Source: Patescibacteria group bacterium
GTDB lineage: Bacteria; Patescibacteriota; Patescibacteriia; UBA10025
Length of the DNA: 64,000 nt
Assembly: GCA_042570925.1 (NCBI GenBank)
Contig: JBHPFX010000003.1
Span: 10,149-74,148, forward strand
Direction: 5' to 3'
Positions 20,124 to 49,358 of this stretch are shown here, piece by piece. A model generated the notes under the pieces. It was not told the origin of the DNA. It did no database searches and was given only the letters and a program-made list of their open reading frames with translations. Numbering within the stretch: the stretch's first letter is position 1; the number at the start of each line of letters is the position of its first letter. The position numbers and the translations under genes are program-made.

Positions 20124-21615
<1,492 letters not shown>

Positions 21616-21889
21616 CTAGGGAGTAAATCTAGATCGCTGACACTTTAGTGTCAGTGAACTGTCGCGTGAAACTCATCTCTTTATTACGTAAAGAGAGATG
21701 TCTCACTTAGGTGCAGTGAACCTGCATATACGATATGACTAACGTGTGAGCTAATTCTTACCACATCAAAGTTGCATAATGACTTACTGCCTACCATATA
21801 TACAGGTTACGCCTTCCCCCTCTTGTTCTTCGGATGTCGAGGCGGTAAACTGTGAGTTGTAGGCTTTTTTCATATTTATTATTCATTCA

Positions 21890-21965
21890 GGGCACGTAGC
21901 TCAGTTGGTTATCCCTCGCTATAGCTCGGGACTTAGGAGCGCTTACTGTACTTTACAGAATTCCC
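21890..21965 (+). pseudogene. 5' part of a second, diverged tRNA-Ile-like copy (outer copy)
   Basis: GGGCACGTAGCTCAGTTGGTTA (acceptor plus D arm), then an insert and a degenerate GAGCGC..anticodon region. Its acceptor partner CGTGCCC is at 22202-22208. Confidence 0.5.
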
Positions 21966-21970
21966 TTGGT

Positions 21971-22047
21971 GGGCGCGTAGCTCAGGTGGTTAGAGCGCGT
22001 CACTGATAATGACGAGGTCGGAGGTTCGAGTCCTCCCGCGCCCACCA
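21971..22047 (+). tRNA. tRNA-Ile (anticodon GAU), CCA encoded
   Basis: GGGCGCG acceptor, CTGATAA anticodon loop, GGTTCGAGTCC T arm, CGCGCCC-A-CCA. Full cloverleaf. Confidence 0.9.
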
Positions 22048-22123
22048 AGGGAATGAAGTGTACCCGACTTTCATGTGAGGTCACTGACCCGTCCTGAGTC
22101 CTGAGCGAAGTCGAAGGACGAAG

Positions 22124-22212
22124 GATAATGACGAGCTCGGCCTTCAGCTCTGAGGCCTGAACGGCTCAGAGCTCAGGCTCGAAGAGAGGTTCAAATCCTC
22201 CCGTGCCCACCA
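22124..22212 (+). pseudogene. 3' part of the outer tRNA-Ile-like copy, with a roughly 50-nt G+C-rich insert in the variable region
   Basis: GATAATGACGAG, then the insert (22136-22187), then GGTTCAAATCCTCCCGTGCCCACCA. Confidence 0.5.
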
Positions 22213-22248
22213 GTGGGCTGATATAGGGTTCTCCGTACGGCGGACAGG

Positions 22249-22292
22249 TAATGACGAGGTCGCCCCGCTATGGCGGGGCCGTGTGCCCACCA
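22249..22292 (+). pseudogene. Further tRNA-Ile 3'-half fragment in which a G+C hairpin replaces the T arm
   Basis: TAATGACGAGGTCG + CCCCGCTATGGCGGGG + CCGTGTGCCCACCA. Confidence 0.45.
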
Positions 22293-22345
22293 GCCGAGGT
22301 AGCCTGTCTGCCGATAGGCAGGCTCAGTAGTAGAGTCCCGCACCA
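22293..22345 (+). pseudogene. 5' part of a second tRNA-Phe-like copy (outer copy) with a hairpin insert in the D arm
   Basis: GCCGAGG-TA-G, then the insert CCTGTCTGCCGATAGGCAG, then GCTCAGTAGTAGAG. Its acceptor partner CCTCGGC is at 22563-22569. Confidence 0.45.
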
Positions 22346-22365
22346 TGTGCCTGGAGGTATATAAT

Positions 22366-22437
22366 GCCTGGGTAGCTCAGTGGTAGAGCGAAGGACTGAA
22401 AATCCTTGCGTCGGCAGTTCAATTCTGCCCCCAGGCA
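22366..22437 (+). tRNA. tRNA-Phe (anticodon GAA)
   Basis: GCCTGGG acceptor, GCTCAGTGGTAGAGC D arm, CTGAAAA loop, GGCAGTTCAATTCTGCC T arm, CCCAGGC-A. Confidence 0.9.
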
Positions 22438-22440
22438 CAT

Positions 22441-22573
22441 GTGCGGGATAGACTCTGGACTGAAAAATCCTGGAGCCTGTCCTGAACATTGCGCGGAGCG
22501 AAATGATTCAGGATCGGCAGTTTCCGCCAAAGGCGGATCCGCCCATGGCGGACAATTCTGCCCCTCGGCACCA
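22441..22573 (+). pseudogene. 3' part of the outer tRNA-Phe-like copy, with a 30-nt double-hairpin insert in the T loop
   Basis: GGACTGAAAAATCC anticodon arm, then GGCAG-TT, the 30-nt insert (22523-22552), then CAATTCTGCC-CCTCGGC-A-CCA. Confidence 0.5.
22523..22552. repeat. 30-nt G+C-rich double-hairpin insert (copy in the tRNA-Phe-like T loop)
   Basis: TCCGCCAAAGGCGGATCCGCCCATGGCGGA. The near-identical TCCGCCAGAGGCGGATCCGCCTTCGGCGGA lies at 42719-42748 inside nusA. Confidence 0.7.
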
Positions 22574-22658
22574 CGCGGCAGTAGTTTCCTTCATTTCATT
22601 CAGGACAGGCAGTTGGTAGTATGGTTTCAAAAAACTTTTAGATAATTTATTGGATAAT

Positions 22659-22733
22659 GCGGGAGTAGTTCAGTAGTAGAACGCTTCCTTGCCAAGGAAG
22701 AGGTCGCGGGTGCGAATCCCGTCTCCCGCTCCA
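22659..22733 (+). tRNA. tRNA-Gly (anticodon GCC), CCA encoded
   Basis: GCGGGAG acceptor, TTGCCAA loop, CTCCCGC-T-CCA. The T loop reads TGCGAAT, with G where U55 is expected. Confidence 0.75.
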
Positions 22734-22875
22734 TCAAGTCTTAAAGAAAAACATTCCTAGATTGATTTGCATGCTTAGCAAATTAAGCAGGAGGAAGCGA
22801 CGCAACTGCTTGCGTCGCGTCGGGATGAACAGGGCGAACGATGTCGCCTGAGGCGACCGTGAGCTTCGGCCCGAA

Positions 22876-22899
22876 GGGCGAGTCCGGTCTGCCGCTCCA
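22876..22899 (+). pseudogene. Duplicated tRNA-Gly(GCC) 3'-end fragment
   Basis: GGGCGAGTCCGGTCTGCCGCTCCA versus the tRNA GGGTGCGAATCCCGTCTCCCGCTCCA. G+C hairpins precede it. Confidence 0.45.
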
Positions 22900-23029
22900 T
22901 CGTGCCATATGTATATAGACCCCAAGATGGTGGGAGTTTGTTATAATAAATAAAGACGAGGCCGCCGTGGTGGAACCCCGCTTCTCCTTCACTGCGTTCA
23001 GGATACGCGGGGCAGGCTGGTAGAATTGT

Positions 23030-23113
23030 GGGCCAGTGGCGGAACTGGTATACGCGCTAGACTTAAAATCTGGTGGTGGCAACACCGTGTGGGTTCGACT
23101 CCCACCTGGCCCA
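23030..23113 (+). tRNA. tRNA-Leu (anticodon UAA), long variable arm
   Basis: GGGCCAG acceptor, CTTAAAA loop, GGTGGCAACACC variable arm, GTGGGTTCGACTCCCAC T arm, CTGGCCC-A. Confidence 0.85.
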
Positions 23114-23220
23114 TTAGCAAGAATAAGACTCTCGAAGCGAAGTCCTGAGCGTAGCGAAGGGCGAAGCGGAGATCCCGTCCTGAGTTTACCGAAGGACGGG
23201 ACGACCGGCGGCATATGACA

Positions 23221-44708: not shown

Positions 44709-45260
44709 TTACTTTTTAAACAAAAGGCCGAAATGATACTGTCCGGGATCGTATGCTTTTTCAAGTGTTAGTCCATTTGCCTCACCGTGTTGTTGTATTT
44801 CACGAGGAGAAACAAGATCTTTTTCATTCGGACCGAATGAAAGGCCGCCTGTTTTCCAGTCAATTACGAGAAGCTTTCCCCCGGGACTGATAATTCGAAC
44901 AGCTTCTTTTATAATCGCCGCCTTGTTATGTGATTGAAAAAGAGTGTTAACCAGTAGCGCGATGTCGAGTGAGTCATCTTTTATTTGTTTGGCGGCTCCG
45001 TACATTTCCAAATTTGACCAAACTAAAATTACATTCTGCGTCCCCTCTAATTCGAGCTTGCTTTTAAGTCCTGAGAGAGCATGTTTAAGAACATCTACTC
45101 CATACACAATTCCGCGATCGCCCACGATTTTAGAAGCCTGTAAAACAAAGTAGCCCGCACCGCCACATCCAAGATCGGCGATCCGGTGCCCATATGTCAG
45201 GCCAACTTCATGCAGTATTTTTTGCGGATTCAGAAATTCATTTCCAGAAGCGACTTTCAT
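44709..45260 (-). CDS. Class I SAM-dependent methyltransferase
   Basis: IADLGCGGAGYF (motif I), GVD (motif II) and the PGG.L motif. Confidence 0.7.
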   Translation of the reverse strand: MKVASGNEFLNPQKILHEVGLTYGHRIADLGCGGAGYFVLQASKIVGDRGIVYGVDVLKHALSGLKSKLELEGTQNVILVWSNLEMYGAAKQIKDDSLDIALLVNTLFQSHNKAAIIKEAVRIISPGGKLLVIDWKTGGLSFGPNEKDLVSPREIQQHGEANGLTLEKAYDPGQYHFGLLFKK

Positions 45261-45279
45261 ATATGACAGTATACCATTT

Positions 45280-45927
45280 TTACACTTTCTCCACCATGTT
45301 TTTTATCGGCTTAAAAGAGCGTCTATGCAAGGGGCATGCGCCGTGCTTTTGTAAACTCAGTTGATGCGAATGTGTCCCATATCCTTTATGAATGTGAAAT
45401 CCATAGAGTGGGAACCGCCGGTGATACGATACCATAAGTCGGTCACGGGTTACTTTTGCGATAATTGATGCCGCCGCAATCGACTGAACTTTTTCATCTC
45501 CTTTTATTATTGCCCGCATCGGTACAGAAGAAGGAATAGCGAACGCATCAATAAGCAGTGCATGAGGAGTTATTGCCAACTTTCGGATTGCCTGGGAAAT
45601 AGCTTTTTTATTTGCATATGAAATGCCATGTCTGTCAATTGTTCGCGGCAACACGGAATACACAGCCCATGCTTTGGCTTGGCTGATTATTTCTACATAC
45701 AGCTTTTCCCGCGTAGATGGGGAAAGCTGCTTTGAATCTTTTATTCCATGAATAGAATGTCGTGAAGGCAGGATAACAGCAGCGGCGACAAGTGGACCCG
45801 CCCAGGCTCCTCTTCCCGCTTCATCACTACCTGCGATGAGCGTACATCCTTTTTTACGTAATCGCCCCTCTTCTAATGTATGTGGTTGTTTCATTATCTT
45901 CAGTATACTTCTTTCTGAGAAAAACAT
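45280..45927 (-). CDS. rnhB: Ribonuclease HII
   Basis: IAGSDEAGRGAWAGPLVAAAV, GIKDSKQLS, IDA and AASIIAKV.RD motifs. The true start may be the internal MKQPH. Confidence 0.85.
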   Translation of the reverse strand: MFFSERSILKIMKQPHTLEEGRLRKKGCTLIAGSDEAGRGAWAGPLVAAAVILPSRHSIHGIKDSKQLSPSTREKLYVEIISQAKAWAVYSVLPRTIDRHGISYANKKAISQAIRKLAITPHALLIDAFAIPSSVPMRAIIKGDEKVQSIAAASIIAKVTRDRLMVSYHRRFPLYGFHIHKGYGTHSHQLSLQKHGACPLHRRSFKPIKNMVEKV

Positions 45928-45946
45928 TAATGAAAAATTTTTAGAT

Positions 45947-46273
45947 ACAAAAAGGCCGCAGTCGCCTCATGACAAAGTTATTAAAAGGCGCTACGGCCTC
46001 TAAAGGCTTCTATGCTCGAGTGCTTACCGCCCCGGAGGGCAGTAAAGCGCTACCACGCAGAAAAGCCGTTGTGTTCATCTGTATCTCACTATAGATGAAC
46101 AAATTTTCTCAGCCGCCTCTTGGTAGATCTCTTCTAGCAAGCTAGAAAGGAATAACCTTTTTGTTTTGTTTTAACAATTTTTTGCCGGTGAGCTCGGCGT
46201 TTGGCAGTAGAGAAAGATCCGTCAAAAACGGTTTTTTATTTTTGAAAGATCTTTCTCGGCTGAATCACTTAAT
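45947..46273 (-). ncRNA. Candidate structured ncRNA of unknown class (about 325 nt) with its own promoter and terminator
   Basis: Minus-strand TTGACA (46308-46303), N17, TATACT (46285-46280). At least 5 strong local helices. 3' hairpin GGCCGTAGCGCC..GGCGACTGCGGCC plus T5 (45998-45947). No ORF of 60 aa or more. Confidence 0.4.
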
Positions 46274-46354
46274 ATCCGGAGTATAGCACATATTTTAGGG
46301 GTTGTCAACCCGTTCGAGAGATGAATATATCTATATATTAATGGTAGAAACAAA

Positions 46355-46440
46355 AAAAGCTCCTCAGGCCTTCGGCTCTGAGAATCTCAGGCTCGCCTTC
46401 TGGCCCTGAGGGTCATCAGGCCCGATGGGAAGAGGTTGAT
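46355..46440. repeat. G+C-rich palindromic element copy (intergenic, downstream of cmk)
   Basis: CTCAGGCCTTCGGCTCTGAG..GGCCCTGAGGGTCATCAGGCCCGATGGGAAGAGGT aligns with the rpsP and nusA inserts. On the minus strand it ends in a T7 run and probably terminates cmk. Confidence 0.55.
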
Positions 46441-46521
46441 ACTGAGAATGTATCAAGGCACTTTATAAACTACAAATCACATTTTCACCCAATGATGACT
46501 GTCTCAAGTGATTTAGGTATT

Positions 46522-47088
46522 TTATTTCTGAATTTTCCTCTGAACAAAGCTTACAACGCGGTTAAATTCTTCTTCTTGACTGAGTTTTGTTGTGTCTACA
46601 AACAAATCATAATGAGAGGGATCGAATATATCGATCTTGTAGTATTTTTGATATCTCAGTATGTCACTTTTTAACCGAGCTTCGACAGATGCCAATACTG
46701 CCTCGTAGCTATCCAGGGCTTTTGCTTCATTCCTGCTTTTATTATCCCCATCTTGGAGTGATCTCCAGATACGGCGCGCACCTTCTTCATTCGAGACATC
46801 TAAAAAGATTTTCAGTGAATGAGGAATAAAGTGAAACGCTGTTCTGCTCTCAATAACAATATTGTCTTTCTCTCTTCCAAGTTTTGCTATATACTCGTCA
46901 AATTCTTTATCACCTTCTTCATTGCTTTCGCTCCAAGTGTTAAACTCTGCTAACGTCATACCTTTTTTTCGTGCCGCATCTCTGCGAATTTTTCCTATAT
47001 ATACTCTCTCATACCCAAGCGCCGCAGCAAGTTTCTCTGCTACGGTGCTTTTTCCTGATCCCGGTTTGCCGCTGATGCTAATGATCAT
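46522..47088 (-). CDS. cmk: Cytidylate kinase-like P-loop kinase (archaeal-type cmk)
   Basis: MIISISGKPGSGKSTVAEKLA P-loop. Size and layout match short (d)CMP kinases. Confidence 0.65.
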   Translation of the reverse strand: MIISISGKPGSGKSTVAEKLAAALGYERVYIGKIRRDAARKKGMTLAEFNTWSESNEEGDKEFDEYIAKLGREKDNIVIESRTAFHFIPHSLKIFLDVSNEEGARRIWRSLQDGDNKSRNEAKALDSYEAVLASVEARLKSDILRYQKYYKIDIFDPSHYDLFVDTTKLSQEEEFNRVVSFVQRKIQK

Positions 47089-47117
47089 AACTTCTTGAAC
47101 CGGTGGTGATAATGTTT

Positions 47118-49358
47118 TTACGAACGTCTTCGTGGAATCGGGCGACGTGATTGAGATCCACCGGATCGGTGATCTCGGCGTGGTCGCTGAGGGCGTCTGG
47201 ATTGTGCCGATCGTTCAAAATTTTCTGTAAGTGCTTTAACTGAAAGTGCAAGACGATTTTTCTCCTTATCAATATCAACAACCTTTACTTTTAATGTATT
47301 ACCAACTTGCGTTTTATCAGTTACCCTGTCTATTCGTTCCGGAGAGAATTCTGAAATATGAACCATACCATCTCTGCCGGGAAGAATTTCAACAATTGCA
47401 CCAATCTCACCCCCACTCATATCCGTAACAATCTTTACAACCTTTCCTTCATAGATTTCGCCAATTTTTATCTCTTTTGTAAGATCTTCAATCCACTTCT
47501 TTGCTTTATCAGACATTTCAGAATTATTAGAGGTGACTGAGATAGTACCGTCATCCTCAATGTCAATTTTGATCACATCTGCGCCGCCGCATTCTTCAAT
47601 GATCTTGTTAATCATTTCGCCGCCTTTTCCAATCACAGTGCGAATTTTATCAGGATCAACTTTAATCGCAGTAATTCTCGGAGCGTACGGGGAAAGTTCT
47701 TTACGCGGCTCTGCAAGTGCCTGACTCATATTATCAAGAATTTTTTTACGCGCTATCTTTGCTGCTTCAAGCGTTTCGTCAAGAATGCGCGGAGAAATGC
47801 CATGAAGTTTTGTGTCCATTTGCATGGCGGTAATTCCTTTAGTCGTGCCGGCCACTTTAAAATCCATATCGCCATTATGATCTTCGACTCCCTGAATATC
47901 GGTGAGGATCATGTATTTGGATGCATCATTTTCATCACTTACCAATCCCATAGCAATGCCGGCAACTGGGGAGGATATCGGTACCGCAGCATCCATGAGC
48001 GCAAGGCTCGAACCGCATATCGACGCTTGTGAAGTAGAGCCGTTTGAAGCGAGCACTTCCGATACTACTCGAATAGTGTAGGGAAATTTATCTTGTTCCG
48101 GGAGGACGGGAACCAATGCTTTTTCTGCAAGTGCGCCATGACCAATTTCCCGTCTTCCGGCACCTCGAAGCGGTTTTACTTCTCCAACGGAGAAACCCGG
48201 GAAATTATAGTGGTGCATGTATTTCTTTGTTCCTGATAATTCCATCGTATCCAAGAATTGCTCTTCACCCGGAGAACCAAGCGTAACTACTGATAAAATC
48301 TGCGTTTCTCCCCTTTGAAACAGGCCTGATCCGTGTGTACGGGGTAAAATGCCGGCTTCAGAGGCAAGTGTCCGGATTTCGTCTGTTTTTCTTCCATCAA
48401 CGCGCTTTCCTTGCTCGAGAAGCAGTGTCCGGGCTCTTTTTTCATACATTTCCTGAATAAGTTCAAGTGCTTTTATTCGTTCATCTTTTGACACTTCATT
48501 ATCTTCCTTAAGTATAGCGTCAAGTTCAGTCTGAATGTCGGCAAGTCCTCCACTAAGCTCTTTTTTATCTCTTGGCTGTTGAAGGAGTGCGTCGAGCTTT
48601 GGAATGCTCAAGTTTTCAATTTTTGCTTTTACAGCTTCAGAAACTTTCTCAGGTATCTCAATAGTAATTTTCTCCAGTCCAACGCTGTCTTTTACTTCAT
48701 TGATAAGCTCAATGATCGGCTTGATGTTTTCATGGCCGAACTGGATTGCCTGTTTCATTACCTCTTCCTCAATTTCATTACCTCCGGCTTCGATCATGAT
48801 TATTTTATCATCGTTCCCACATACTACGAGATCGAGATCGCTTTTTTCCCGTGCTTCGTAAGTGGGATTCAAAATCCATTTTCCATCAATGCGGCCGACG
48901 CGTGTTCCGGCTACCGGTCCGTTCCAAGGAATTGGAGATATCATCAAAGCAGCTGACGCGGCAATGACTGAAAGAATATCTGCGTCATTTTCCTGATCAC
49001 TCGAGAGTACCGTCAATACAACCTGCACATCACGACGCATTCGTTCGTCGAATAATGGGCGGATAGTCCTGTCAACGAGCCTTGAAGTAAGAATTGCTTC
49101 GTCTGAAGGTCGGCCTTCACGTTTTATAAAGCGAGAACCTTTTATCTTACCTGCGGCATACAGCCGTTCCTCATAATCAACAAGCAACGGGAAGTAGTCC
49201 ACCCCTTCTCTCTCGGTATTCCCGATGACTGCCGTAGCTAAAACAACCGTTCCGTTATACTGAACGGTACAAGCCCCATGTGCCTGTCCGGCAAAGCGCC
49301 CTGTCTCAATAATTAACTTTTTTCCACCGACTTCTGTTTCGAACGTCTTACGTTCCAT
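47118..49358 (-). CDS. pnp: Polyribonucleotide nucleotidyltransferase (PNPase)
   Basis: Two RNase PH domains (GRFAGQAHGA; REIGHG.LAE.A), KH (VIGKGGEMINKI) and S1 (GEIYEGKVVKI) domains. Confidence 0.92.
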   Translation of the reverse strand: MERKTFETEVGGKKLIIETGRFAGQAHGACTVQYNGTVVLATAVIGNTEREGVDYFPLLVDYEERLYAAGKIKGSRFIKREGRPSDEAILTSRLVDRTIRPLFDERMRRDVQVVLTVLSSDQENDADILSVIAASAALMISPIPWNGPVAGTRVGRIDGKWILNPTYEAREKSDLDLVVCGNDDKIIMIEAGGNEIEEEVMKQAIQFGHENIKPIIELINEVKDSVGLEKITIEIPEKVSEAVKAKIENLSIPKLDALLQQPRDKKELSGGLADIQTELDAILKEDNEVSKDERIKALELIQEMYEKRARTLLLEQGKRVDGRKTDEIRTLASEAGILPRTHGSGLFQRGETQILSVVTLGSPGEEQFLDTMELSGTKKYMHHYNFPGFSVGEVKPLRGAGRREIGHGALAEKALVPVLPEQDKFPYTIRVVSEVLASNGSTSQASICGSSLALMDAAVPISSPVAGIAMGLVSDENDASKYMILTDIQGVEDHNGDMDFKVAGTTKGITAMQMDTKLHGISPRILDETLEAAKIARKKILDNMSQALAEPRKELSPYAPRITAIKVDPDKIRTVIGKGGEMINKIIEECGGADVIKIDIEDDGTISVTSNNSEMSDKAKKWIEDLTKEIKIGEIYEGKVVKIVTDMSGGEIGAIVEILPGRDGMVHISEFSPERIDRVTDKTQVGNTLKVKVVDIDKEKNRLALSVKALTENFERSAQSRRPQRPRRDHRSGGSQSRRPIPRRRS

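Follow-up and report, generated by a model that had tools for sequence, protein, structure and literature searches.

The described systems closest to the element analysed here are the 6S RNA (ssrS, RF00013), the bacterial RNase P RNAs (RF00010/RF00011, including the forms found in the candidate phyla radiation, CPR; Lui et al. 2021), the RNAs OLE, raiA, ROOL, GOLLD and HEARO, and the RNA I/RNA II pair of ColE1. The element lies on the minus strand between cmk and rnhB in a 64,000-nucleotide (nt) stretch of a metagenome-assembled Patescibacteria genome (assembly GCA_042570925.1, contig JBHPFX010000003.1, positions 10,149 to 74,148), called here the window and numbered from its first letter. On a slight balance of the evidence it appears to be a separate gene for a strongly expressed, trans-acting and probably protein-binding structured noncoding RNA, which would represent a new family confined to a single Patescibacteria lineage. 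Genomes of the CPR/Patescibacteria are tiny, most regulatory complexity is believed to have been lost from them, and to our knowledge almost nothing is known about their noncoding RNAs. Yet this lineage has retained an RNA of 325-420 nt that combines a perfect promoter with eight helices and a conserved tertiary contact.

Like 6S RNA, the putative RNA is stand-alone, structured and probably abundant, and is preceded by a strong sigma-70-type promoter; its likely mode of action is that of a protein-binding decoy or scaffold. Unlike 6S RNA, it is approximately twice as long and forms eight separate hairpins with a kissing loop, it lacks a rod-like fold, a central bubble and a stem joining its two ends, and the RF00013 covariance model does not match it. 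It resembles the RNase P RNAs in size (330-420 nt), multi-domain organization, long-range tertiary pairing and the CPR host, in which RNase P RNA is hard to detect. It differs from them in the absence of the P1, P2 and P4 pairings and of the strands GGAAAGUC and ACAGAA, which were not seen on reading the ten sequences described below, and it is unmatched by the RNase P model even at ~10 bits. OLE, raiA, ROOL, GOLLD and HEARO are likewise lineage-restricted, intricately folded, provided with pseudoknot-type tertiary contacts and found by comparative analysis, but they show no sequence or structure match to the new RNA, whose hosts are Patescibacteria and whose place is fixed between cmk and rnhB and not tied to mobile elements or prophages. 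RNA I and RNA II of ColE1 are also structured RNAs of several hundred nt, with an own strong promoter and loop-loop kissing, and in relatives the new RNA adjoins an RNase H gene and a DnaA box. However, its kissing is intramolecular, it has no antisense partner, its transcript terminates and it is chromosomal; blastn against plasmid and phage collections gave no match to it.

A conserved putative transcription unit in the cmk-rnhB gap

The gap is bounded on the minus strand by the end of a cmk-like kinase gene (PF13189) at 46522 and the start of the RNase HII gene rnhB (PF01351) at 45894. The RNase HII encoded in the window corresponds to the NCBI protein P0001 (100 % identity over 204 aa), whose start in NCBI is the ATG at 45894. 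The gene order in the window is pnp - cmk - RNA - rnhB - S-adenosylmethionine (SAM)-methyltransferase gene - UPF0102 - nusA. A first-pass annotation made from the letters of the window had proposed a promoter composed of TTGACA (46308-46303), a 17-nt spacer and TATACT (46285-46280), and all these parts were found in the sequence and by the promoter scan. The complete motif TTGACA-N17-TG-n-TATACT agrees with the consensus in 11/12 positions and has an extended -10 in addition; it is the sole site scoring above 9/12 within 45000-47500, an interval in which promoter-like sites as a class are not enriched (4 found vs 4.9 expected).

At the opposite end of the unit the hairpin arms GGCCGUAGCGCC-N20-GGCGACUGCGGCC (45998-45954) are followed by U5 at 45953-45949. 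This terminator had been described before as GGCCGTAGCGCC-N20-GGCGACTGCGGCC plus T5, and both parts are in place, but the T-run ends at 45949 and not at 45947. The distance of 20 nt given from the terminator to rnhB was incorrect: it presumes a start at the in-frame ATG 45927, upstream of 45894, which is probably not the start of rnhB, and the actual distance to the ATG at 45894 is ~54 nt.

Relatives were collected as RNase HII homologues by a protein search, and their contigs were then examined at the cmk-rnhB gap. Nine further distinct Patescibacteria contigs carry a homologous element there, so that ten lineages, the window included, could be compared. RNase HII of the closest relative, L081, is 87 % identical to that of the window. 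L148 (58 %) has, like the window, the short form of the RNA, and the long form is present in L083 (=L084=L131), L085, L149 (=L150) and L152 (57 % each), L151 and L153 (=L154=L155) (56 % each) and L147 (55 %). TTGACA-N17-TATACT preceded by TG is perfect in 10/10 lineages. Counted from the first base past the -10 hexamer and including the whole U-run, the element is 331-424 nt long; in nine of the lineages the U-run has 5-8 nt, whereas that of L148 is just UUU.

The RNA with its promoter is 93.6 % identical between the window and L081, in comparison to 87.6 % for pnp, 86.6 % for the methyltransferase gene, 84.4 % for rnhB (66.3 % at its third codon positions), 82.6 % for cmk and 76.5 % for the upstream non-RNA spacer. 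The two sequences are identical from 46067 through the U-run, and the few substitutions in stems are compensatory (CCGU/ACGG to CUGU/ACAG at the apex of the 5' hairpin H1 and GUUCAUCU/AGAUGAAC to GUUUAUCU/AGAUAAAC in hairpin B). By this comparison the RNA is under purifying selection and better conserved than the flanking genes. Since the surrounding essential genes are less strictly conserved than the RNA, it very probably does something important.

The short sense-strand open reading frames (ORFs) of 21-30 aa with TTG starts in the window, and the ORFs that gene callers put over the RNA in relatives, could speak for a small-protein gene, and the hairpins could in principle be a chance cluster in a non-functional spacer; both explanations are hardly credible. 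The gap contains no ORF of 60 aa or more, as had been claimed and as the ORF listing confirmed, and none of the ORFs on either strand keeps its position, frame or sequence from lineage to lineage among the ten, so that no conserved small-protein gene, the alternative named in the first-pass annotation, emerged. Furthermore, the window and L081 are distinguished by single-nucleotide indels, the helix substitutions are compensatory and the region is conserved above its flanking genes.

The caller ORFs in question are found in L084 (2134-2352, 72 aa) and L149 (2224-2319, 31 aa). Other lineages do not share them, and they are probably spurious, which calls for caution on the part of annotators.

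Secondary and tertiary structure

On the minus strand, the 331-nt stretch folds with a minimum free energy (MFE) of -126.8 kcal/mol, in comparison to -80.7±5.3 kcal/mol for dinucleotide shuffles (z -8.7, 0/100), in agreement with its earlier description as highly structured; the z value for the plus strand is -7.0. The minus strand is the functional one, since a U:G pair in the compound hairpin H6, fixed in seven long-form relatives, and the U:G that is the commonest form (5/10 sequences) of one pair in hairpin B would become C·A mismatches on the opposite strand.

Eight helices were distinguished, in the 5' to 3' order H1, hairpin A, H3, H3b, H4, hairpin B, H6 and H7 (Table 1). Those recognized previously in the DNA letters, that is GAGAAAGATC/GATCTTTCTC around CCGT-TTTTG-ACGG (46262-46205), TCTAGC-TT-GCTAGA (46146-46133), GTTCATCT-N12-AGATGAAC (46100-46073) and CTGCCC-TCCG-GGGCGG inside GGCTTTT...AGAAGCC (46067-46005), are all present and correspond to H1, H3b, hairpin B and H6, respectively. 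The comparison of homologous spacers revealed extensive covariation.

Table 1. Predicted features of the RNA unit and of the rnhB upstream region (window coordinates)
Feature	Position	Strand	Remarks
-35 hexamer TTGACA	46303..46308	-	promoter scan; identical in 10/10 lineages
Extended -10 TGcTATACT	46280..46288	-	TG-n-TATACT invariant in 10/10 lineages
Predicted transcript, ~325 nt	45949..46273	-	putative start ~7 nt past -10; end at the U-run
H1, long 5' hairpin	46205..46262	-	basal CAG/CUG, 2x2 internal loop, GAGAAAGAUC/GAUCUUUCUC, apical CCGU/ACGG; folds in 10/10
Hairpin A, GCCG-AGCUCAC-CGGC	46184..46198	-	double changes in 4/4 stem pairs; loop pairs with hairpin B loop
A-rich single-stranded linker, end AAAACAAAACAAAAAGG	46156..46183	-	motif AAAAYAAAAYAAAA(A/C)GG conserved in all lineages
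H3, AAGG-N5-CCUU	46147..46159	-	95 % of cells paired; stem nearly invariant, loop variable
H3b, UCUAGC-UU-GCUAGA	46133..46146	-	double changes in 5/6 pairs
H4, then conserved GAGAAAAUU	46102..46126	-	84 % paired; one-sided changes only
Hairpin B, GUUCAUCU-AUAGUGAGAUAC-AGAUGAAC	46073..46100	-	stem C:G to U:A compensatory vs L081
H6, compound hairpin	46005..46067	-	outer GGCUUUU/AGAAGCC, inner conserved CUGCCC-UCCG-GGGCGG
H7, terminal hairpin, terminator-like	45949..45998	-	12-17-bp GC stem, conserved A/U loop AAUAACUUUGU, then U5
TATACT, -10-like box	45902..45907	-	7 nt before rnhB ATG 45894

In H1, GAGAAAG/CUUUCUC of the window is replaced in a compensatory manner by GAGACAG/CUGUCUC in L153, and a further version of this stem is GGCAGCAGGAAG/UUUUCUGCUGUC. 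The outer stem UCAGCC/GGCUGA obtained by single-sequence MFE folding was rejected as unsupported in relatives; the comparison extends H1 by CAG/CUG. The unpaired A-rich strand AAAAYAAAAYAAAAAGG spans 17-28 nt, and its motif AAAAYAAAAYAAAA(A/C)GG occurs once in the window vs 0.02 occurrences expected. The pairs of H3 never vary, and covariation thus speaks neither for nor against this helix. H4 is CUACC-AAGA-GGCGG in the window and ACCACC-AA-GGUGGU in relatives, being weaker in the window lineage.

An additional A-rich 5' leader (AAAAACAAAAAUACAAGAAAGG) is present in the first ~55 nt of the RNA in L083, L149 and L152, the long-form members of one subgroup. This leader is similar to the motif of the internal A-rich linker and may represent a second copy of a binding site.

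In the seven long-form relatives, double changes affect 4/8 pairs of the outer stem of H6 and 7/13 pairs of its middle stem, and the H6 core of G:C, C·A, C:G, U:G and G:C (GCCUGC/GCGGAC) is invariant; it is cut down to CUGCC/GGCGG in the window, L081 and L148. The apex of H6 is variable. It takes the short form CUGCCC-UCCG-GGGCGG in the window, L081 and L148, and since L152 and L151 also have no long apex, the long apex is dispensable. In H7 double changes were found in 10/15 pairs, and its conserved A/U loop is AAUAACUUUGU or AAGUAAUUU.

In the model-based alignment of the central domain, 83.4 % of cells hold standard pairs, in comparison to 42-53 % when the partners are slid by 1-3 columns, and the covariation score of 0.346 was reached by none of 500 shuffles (0.158±0.021). 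For the 3' domain of the seven long-form members the paired cells constitute 88.4 % vs 42-52 % after sliding, and double changes occur in 24/43 pairs vs 8.6±2.1 in shuffles (0/500).

The GUGAG sequence in the loop of hairpin B (46089-46085) is complementary to CUCAC in the loop of hairpin A. Such loop-loop (kissing) complementarity of 5-7 bp between segments ~90 nt apart is present in 10/10 lineages, in three sequence classes. The first comprises CUCAC/GUGAG (window, L081) and GCUCAC/GUGAGC (L148), the second AGCUGAC/GUCAGCU (L083, L149), AGCUGGC/GUCAGCU (L152) and AGCUGG/CCAGCU (L085), and the third GUUGGC/GCCAAC (L147) and GUUGG/CCAAC (L151, L153). Kissing pairs of 5 bp are individually weak in single-sequence shuffle tests; the case for the pairing is made because its sequence is replaced across lineages. 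The A/B pairing is therefore a covarying tertiary contact, which would clamp the central domain.

A covariance model of the central domain, R1, was built from all ten sequences and has 141 positions and 26 pairs, covering hairpin A, the A-rich linker, AAGG/CCUU, H3b, H4 and hairpin B. For the RNA there are now an alignment, a covariance model and a structure prediction, secondary as well as tertiary, that can be tested. The window scored 124.5 bits (E ~1e-24) and the ten members 88-136 bits, values that are high by construction and give no independent proof of membership. None of 81 other rnhB loci from other bacteria and CPR groups (L001-L080, L082) gave a significant score. The best of them, L066 (18.9 bits, E 0.17), was rejected as its hairpin A pairs are broken. 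Eighty of these loci came from an RNase HII scan of genome contigs (best 54 % identical), and blastn, nhmmer, motif search and the covariance model detected no RNA in them. In L082 (rnhB 60 % identical) the genes rnhB, methyltransferase and nusA follow one another without the gap or the RNA. Since no other rnhB locus is significant with R1 and L082 has neither the gap nor the RNA, the family is, as far as these sequences indicate, restricted to one lineage of Patescibacteria (CPR). The pattern GAGCT-N15-40-AAAACAAAAAGG-N5-CCTT gave 61 matches in metagenome contigs, 60 of which were chance matches and one was already known; this pattern was too strict, as the motif varies (AAAAYAAAAY..., ACGG). 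The original description of the transcript as an orphan stands in so far as it belongs to no known family, but the RNA has a family of its own, which comprises ten or more members within a single Patescibacteria lineage and has a constant gene neighbourhood.

Relation to known RNA families and probable mode of action

The whole window was searched by cmscan against Rfam 15 (4227 families), and at gathering thresholds only the 16S rRNA and nine tRNAs were found. With permissive filters and E≤10, no credible family was detected in the 45600-46800 region, in the 346-nt stretch of the RNA alone, for which matches down to ~10 bits were listed, or in the loci of four relatives. The sub-threshold matches, i.e. 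hairpins of miRNA precursors, Srn266, which lay on the wrong strand, and SAM-II, were rejected as chance; SAM-II, with 15.7 bits vs a gathering score of 44, was the only cis-regulatory one. The resemblance of CUCUUUAA in L083 to boxA was considered and dropped. The RNA was not found described in the literature, where searches for CPR noncoding RNAs gave only a report on diverged RNase P RNA (PMC8172020). No relation to any curated RNA family was detectable with the tools used, and the RNA is thus a candidate for a new RNA class.

In its size, its multi-domain fold and its very strong, invariant promoter the RNA resembles housekeeping RNAs, and it could be argued that it is an extremely diverged 6S RNA, RNase P RNA, signal recognition particle (SRP) RNA or transfer-messenger RNA (tmRNA) lying beyond the reach of the Rfam models. 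The sequence conservation of 6S RNAs is notoriously poor. Such a reading is also favoured by the finding of Lui et al. that 10/35 complete CPR genomes had no RNase P RNA at normal thresholds, these RNAs having surfaced only when the RF00010 threshold was lowered to ~5 bits (PMC8172020). However, the RNase P, 6S, SRP and tmRNA models remained unmatched even at E≤10 in the 346-nt stretch and the four relatives, and RF00010/RF00011 also gave no match in the window, whether at gathering scores or at E≤10. The covarying helices are all local hairpins, joined by the A/B kissing loop, and the 5' and 3' ends do not pair as they do in P1 of RNase P RNA or in the closing stem of 6S RNA; no P4-type strands were seen on reading the ten sequences. 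ARAGORN identified no tmRNA or tRNA, and neither a tRNA-like domain nor a tag frame, in the window gap or in the nine relatives. No SRP domain-IV motif was detected, and the H6 core GCCUGC/GCGGAC differs from it. On the evidence of the 64-kb window and of loci of 5-10 kb in the relatives, a known housekeeping RNA in such a diverged form is therefore considered unlikely. A tag-peptide reading after the A-rich linker was also tried and dropped, as the frames are not conserved.

According to the preferred interpretation, that of a separate gene for a trans-acting RNA, the unit would begin with the invariant near-consensus sigma-70-type promoter and end with the GC hairpin and the U-run. The RNA would act as a folded particle binding one or more proteins, being a scaffold or decoy in the manner of the 6S, SRP and Y RNAs, and it would contact them through two invariant parts, the single strand and the internal loop. 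A trans-acting particle is suggested because the promoter is of housekeeping grade, because the conserved nucleotides are located in unpaired strands and the internal loop and not in one long antisense seed, and because the single strands show only chance-level complementarity to 16S rRNA (those conserved pair with the window 16S rRNA no better than their shuffled versions). The RNA is probably neither a base-pairing small RNA nor a leader of rnhB.

Several points weigh against this interpretation. Both ends of the RNA are deduced from the promoter and terminator sequences, and in L148, where the terminal hairpin precedes only UUU, read-through is possible. The protein-binding mode is argued only from the architecture and the invariant unpaired nucleotides. 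The constant orientation ahead of rnhB-methyltransferase-UPF0102-nusA leaves room for a role in cis, and RNase P RNAs of the CPR do fall below Rfam thresholds (PMC8172020). Finally, the ten lineages sampled are all related, and with such a sample the shuffle controls can overstate significance.

More specifically, and only tentatively, the RNA might be a subunit of a novel ribonucleoprotein of this lineage of ultra-small CPR bacteria, under DnaA (cell-cycle) control in most members and with the A-rich strand and the GCCUGC/GCGGAC loop serving for protein docking. If true, this would mean a new housekeeping or regulatory RNA class and not a diverged copy of a known one.

Probable independence from rnhB, DnaA boxes and neighbouring features

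The orientation and position of the RNA ahead of rnhB...nusA, constant in 10/10 lineages, would also be expected of a cis leader of the rnhB-methyltransferase-UPF0102-nusA genes, in which H7 would be a conditional terminator, NusA-dependent or controlled by a ligand or protein, that sets the read-through. The whole gene block is syntenic, however, so the position of the RNA tells little. In E. coli and B. subtilis, nusA is known to be autoregulated through terminators that precede it, and H7 is atypical as a terminator, with its long stem, large A/U-rich loop and a U-run reduced to U5 in the window and UUU in L148, but no pairing that could form an alternative antiterminator was seen. L083/L084 have an intact RNA although its terminator is separated from rnhB by an opposite-strand gene of 91 aa, and two further opposite-strand genes split UPF0102 from nusA. 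The arrangement in L082, with the genes kept and the RNA absent, also disagrees with a leader function. Moreover, rnhB of the window has a -10-like box of its own just before the start codon (Table 1). A TATACT or TATAAT box likewise precedes the called start of rnhB by 5-9 nt in L147, L149, L151, L152 and L153, and in L085 its distance is 16 nt to the called start or 5 nt to an upstream ATG; no such box was seen before rnhB in L148. These sequences suggest that rnhB may have its own promoter and a leaderless or nearly leaderless mRNA. All in all, a leader function is improbable.

A perfect DnaA box TGTGGATAA is located 70-100 bp upstream of the -35 hexamer in 7/7 long-form lineages, and L147 has a second one, TTATCCACA, inside the 5' leader. 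In locus coordinates the boxes are at 1970 in L083, 1934 in L149, 1249 in L152, 2431 in L085, 1966 and 2089 in L147, 2005 in L151 and 1982 in L153, which gives 8 perfect boxes in 5.7 kb of spacer vs 0 in 50 kb of flanks. Together with the adjoining rnhB and with kissing loops that recall the RNA I/RNA II control system, which uses them, the boxes could indicate a replication-linked RNA under DnaA control, which would work, like RNA II of ColE1, through an RNA-DNA hybrid that serves as primer or R-loop. This is very unlikely, as the spacers of the window, L081 and L148 have no DnaA box and yet the RNA is kept, and the transcript stops at the hairpin and U-run and does not run into an origin. 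Neither an AT-rich unwinding element nor a cluster of boxes was seen, and one box on its own fits transcriptional control better than it fits an origin. DnaA may control the RNA promoter in the seven long-form lineages.

In the window, a second structured element (46360-46445, minus strand) is located between the cmk stop codon and the RNA promoter, where the relatives have the DnaA box. It consists of CCUCAGGGCC...GGCCUGAGG around a CUGAG-AUU-CUCAG hairpin, followed by U7, and it is kept in L081 minus 11 nt, the inner hairpin being deleted. Most simply, it is the terminator of cmk; an SRP-like reading of it was considered and dropped.

Elsewhere in the window, at 20124-23114, genes for tRNA-Ile, Phe, Gly and Leu come after the 16S rRNA gene, and 23S and 5S rRNA genes are absent from the whole 64 kb, the rRNA genes thus being unlinked, as reported for many CPR genomes (PMC8172020). 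The GC skew turns from positive to negative near 24 kb (~24000) and back to positive near 51 kb (~51000), and both flips coincide with switches in gene orientation.

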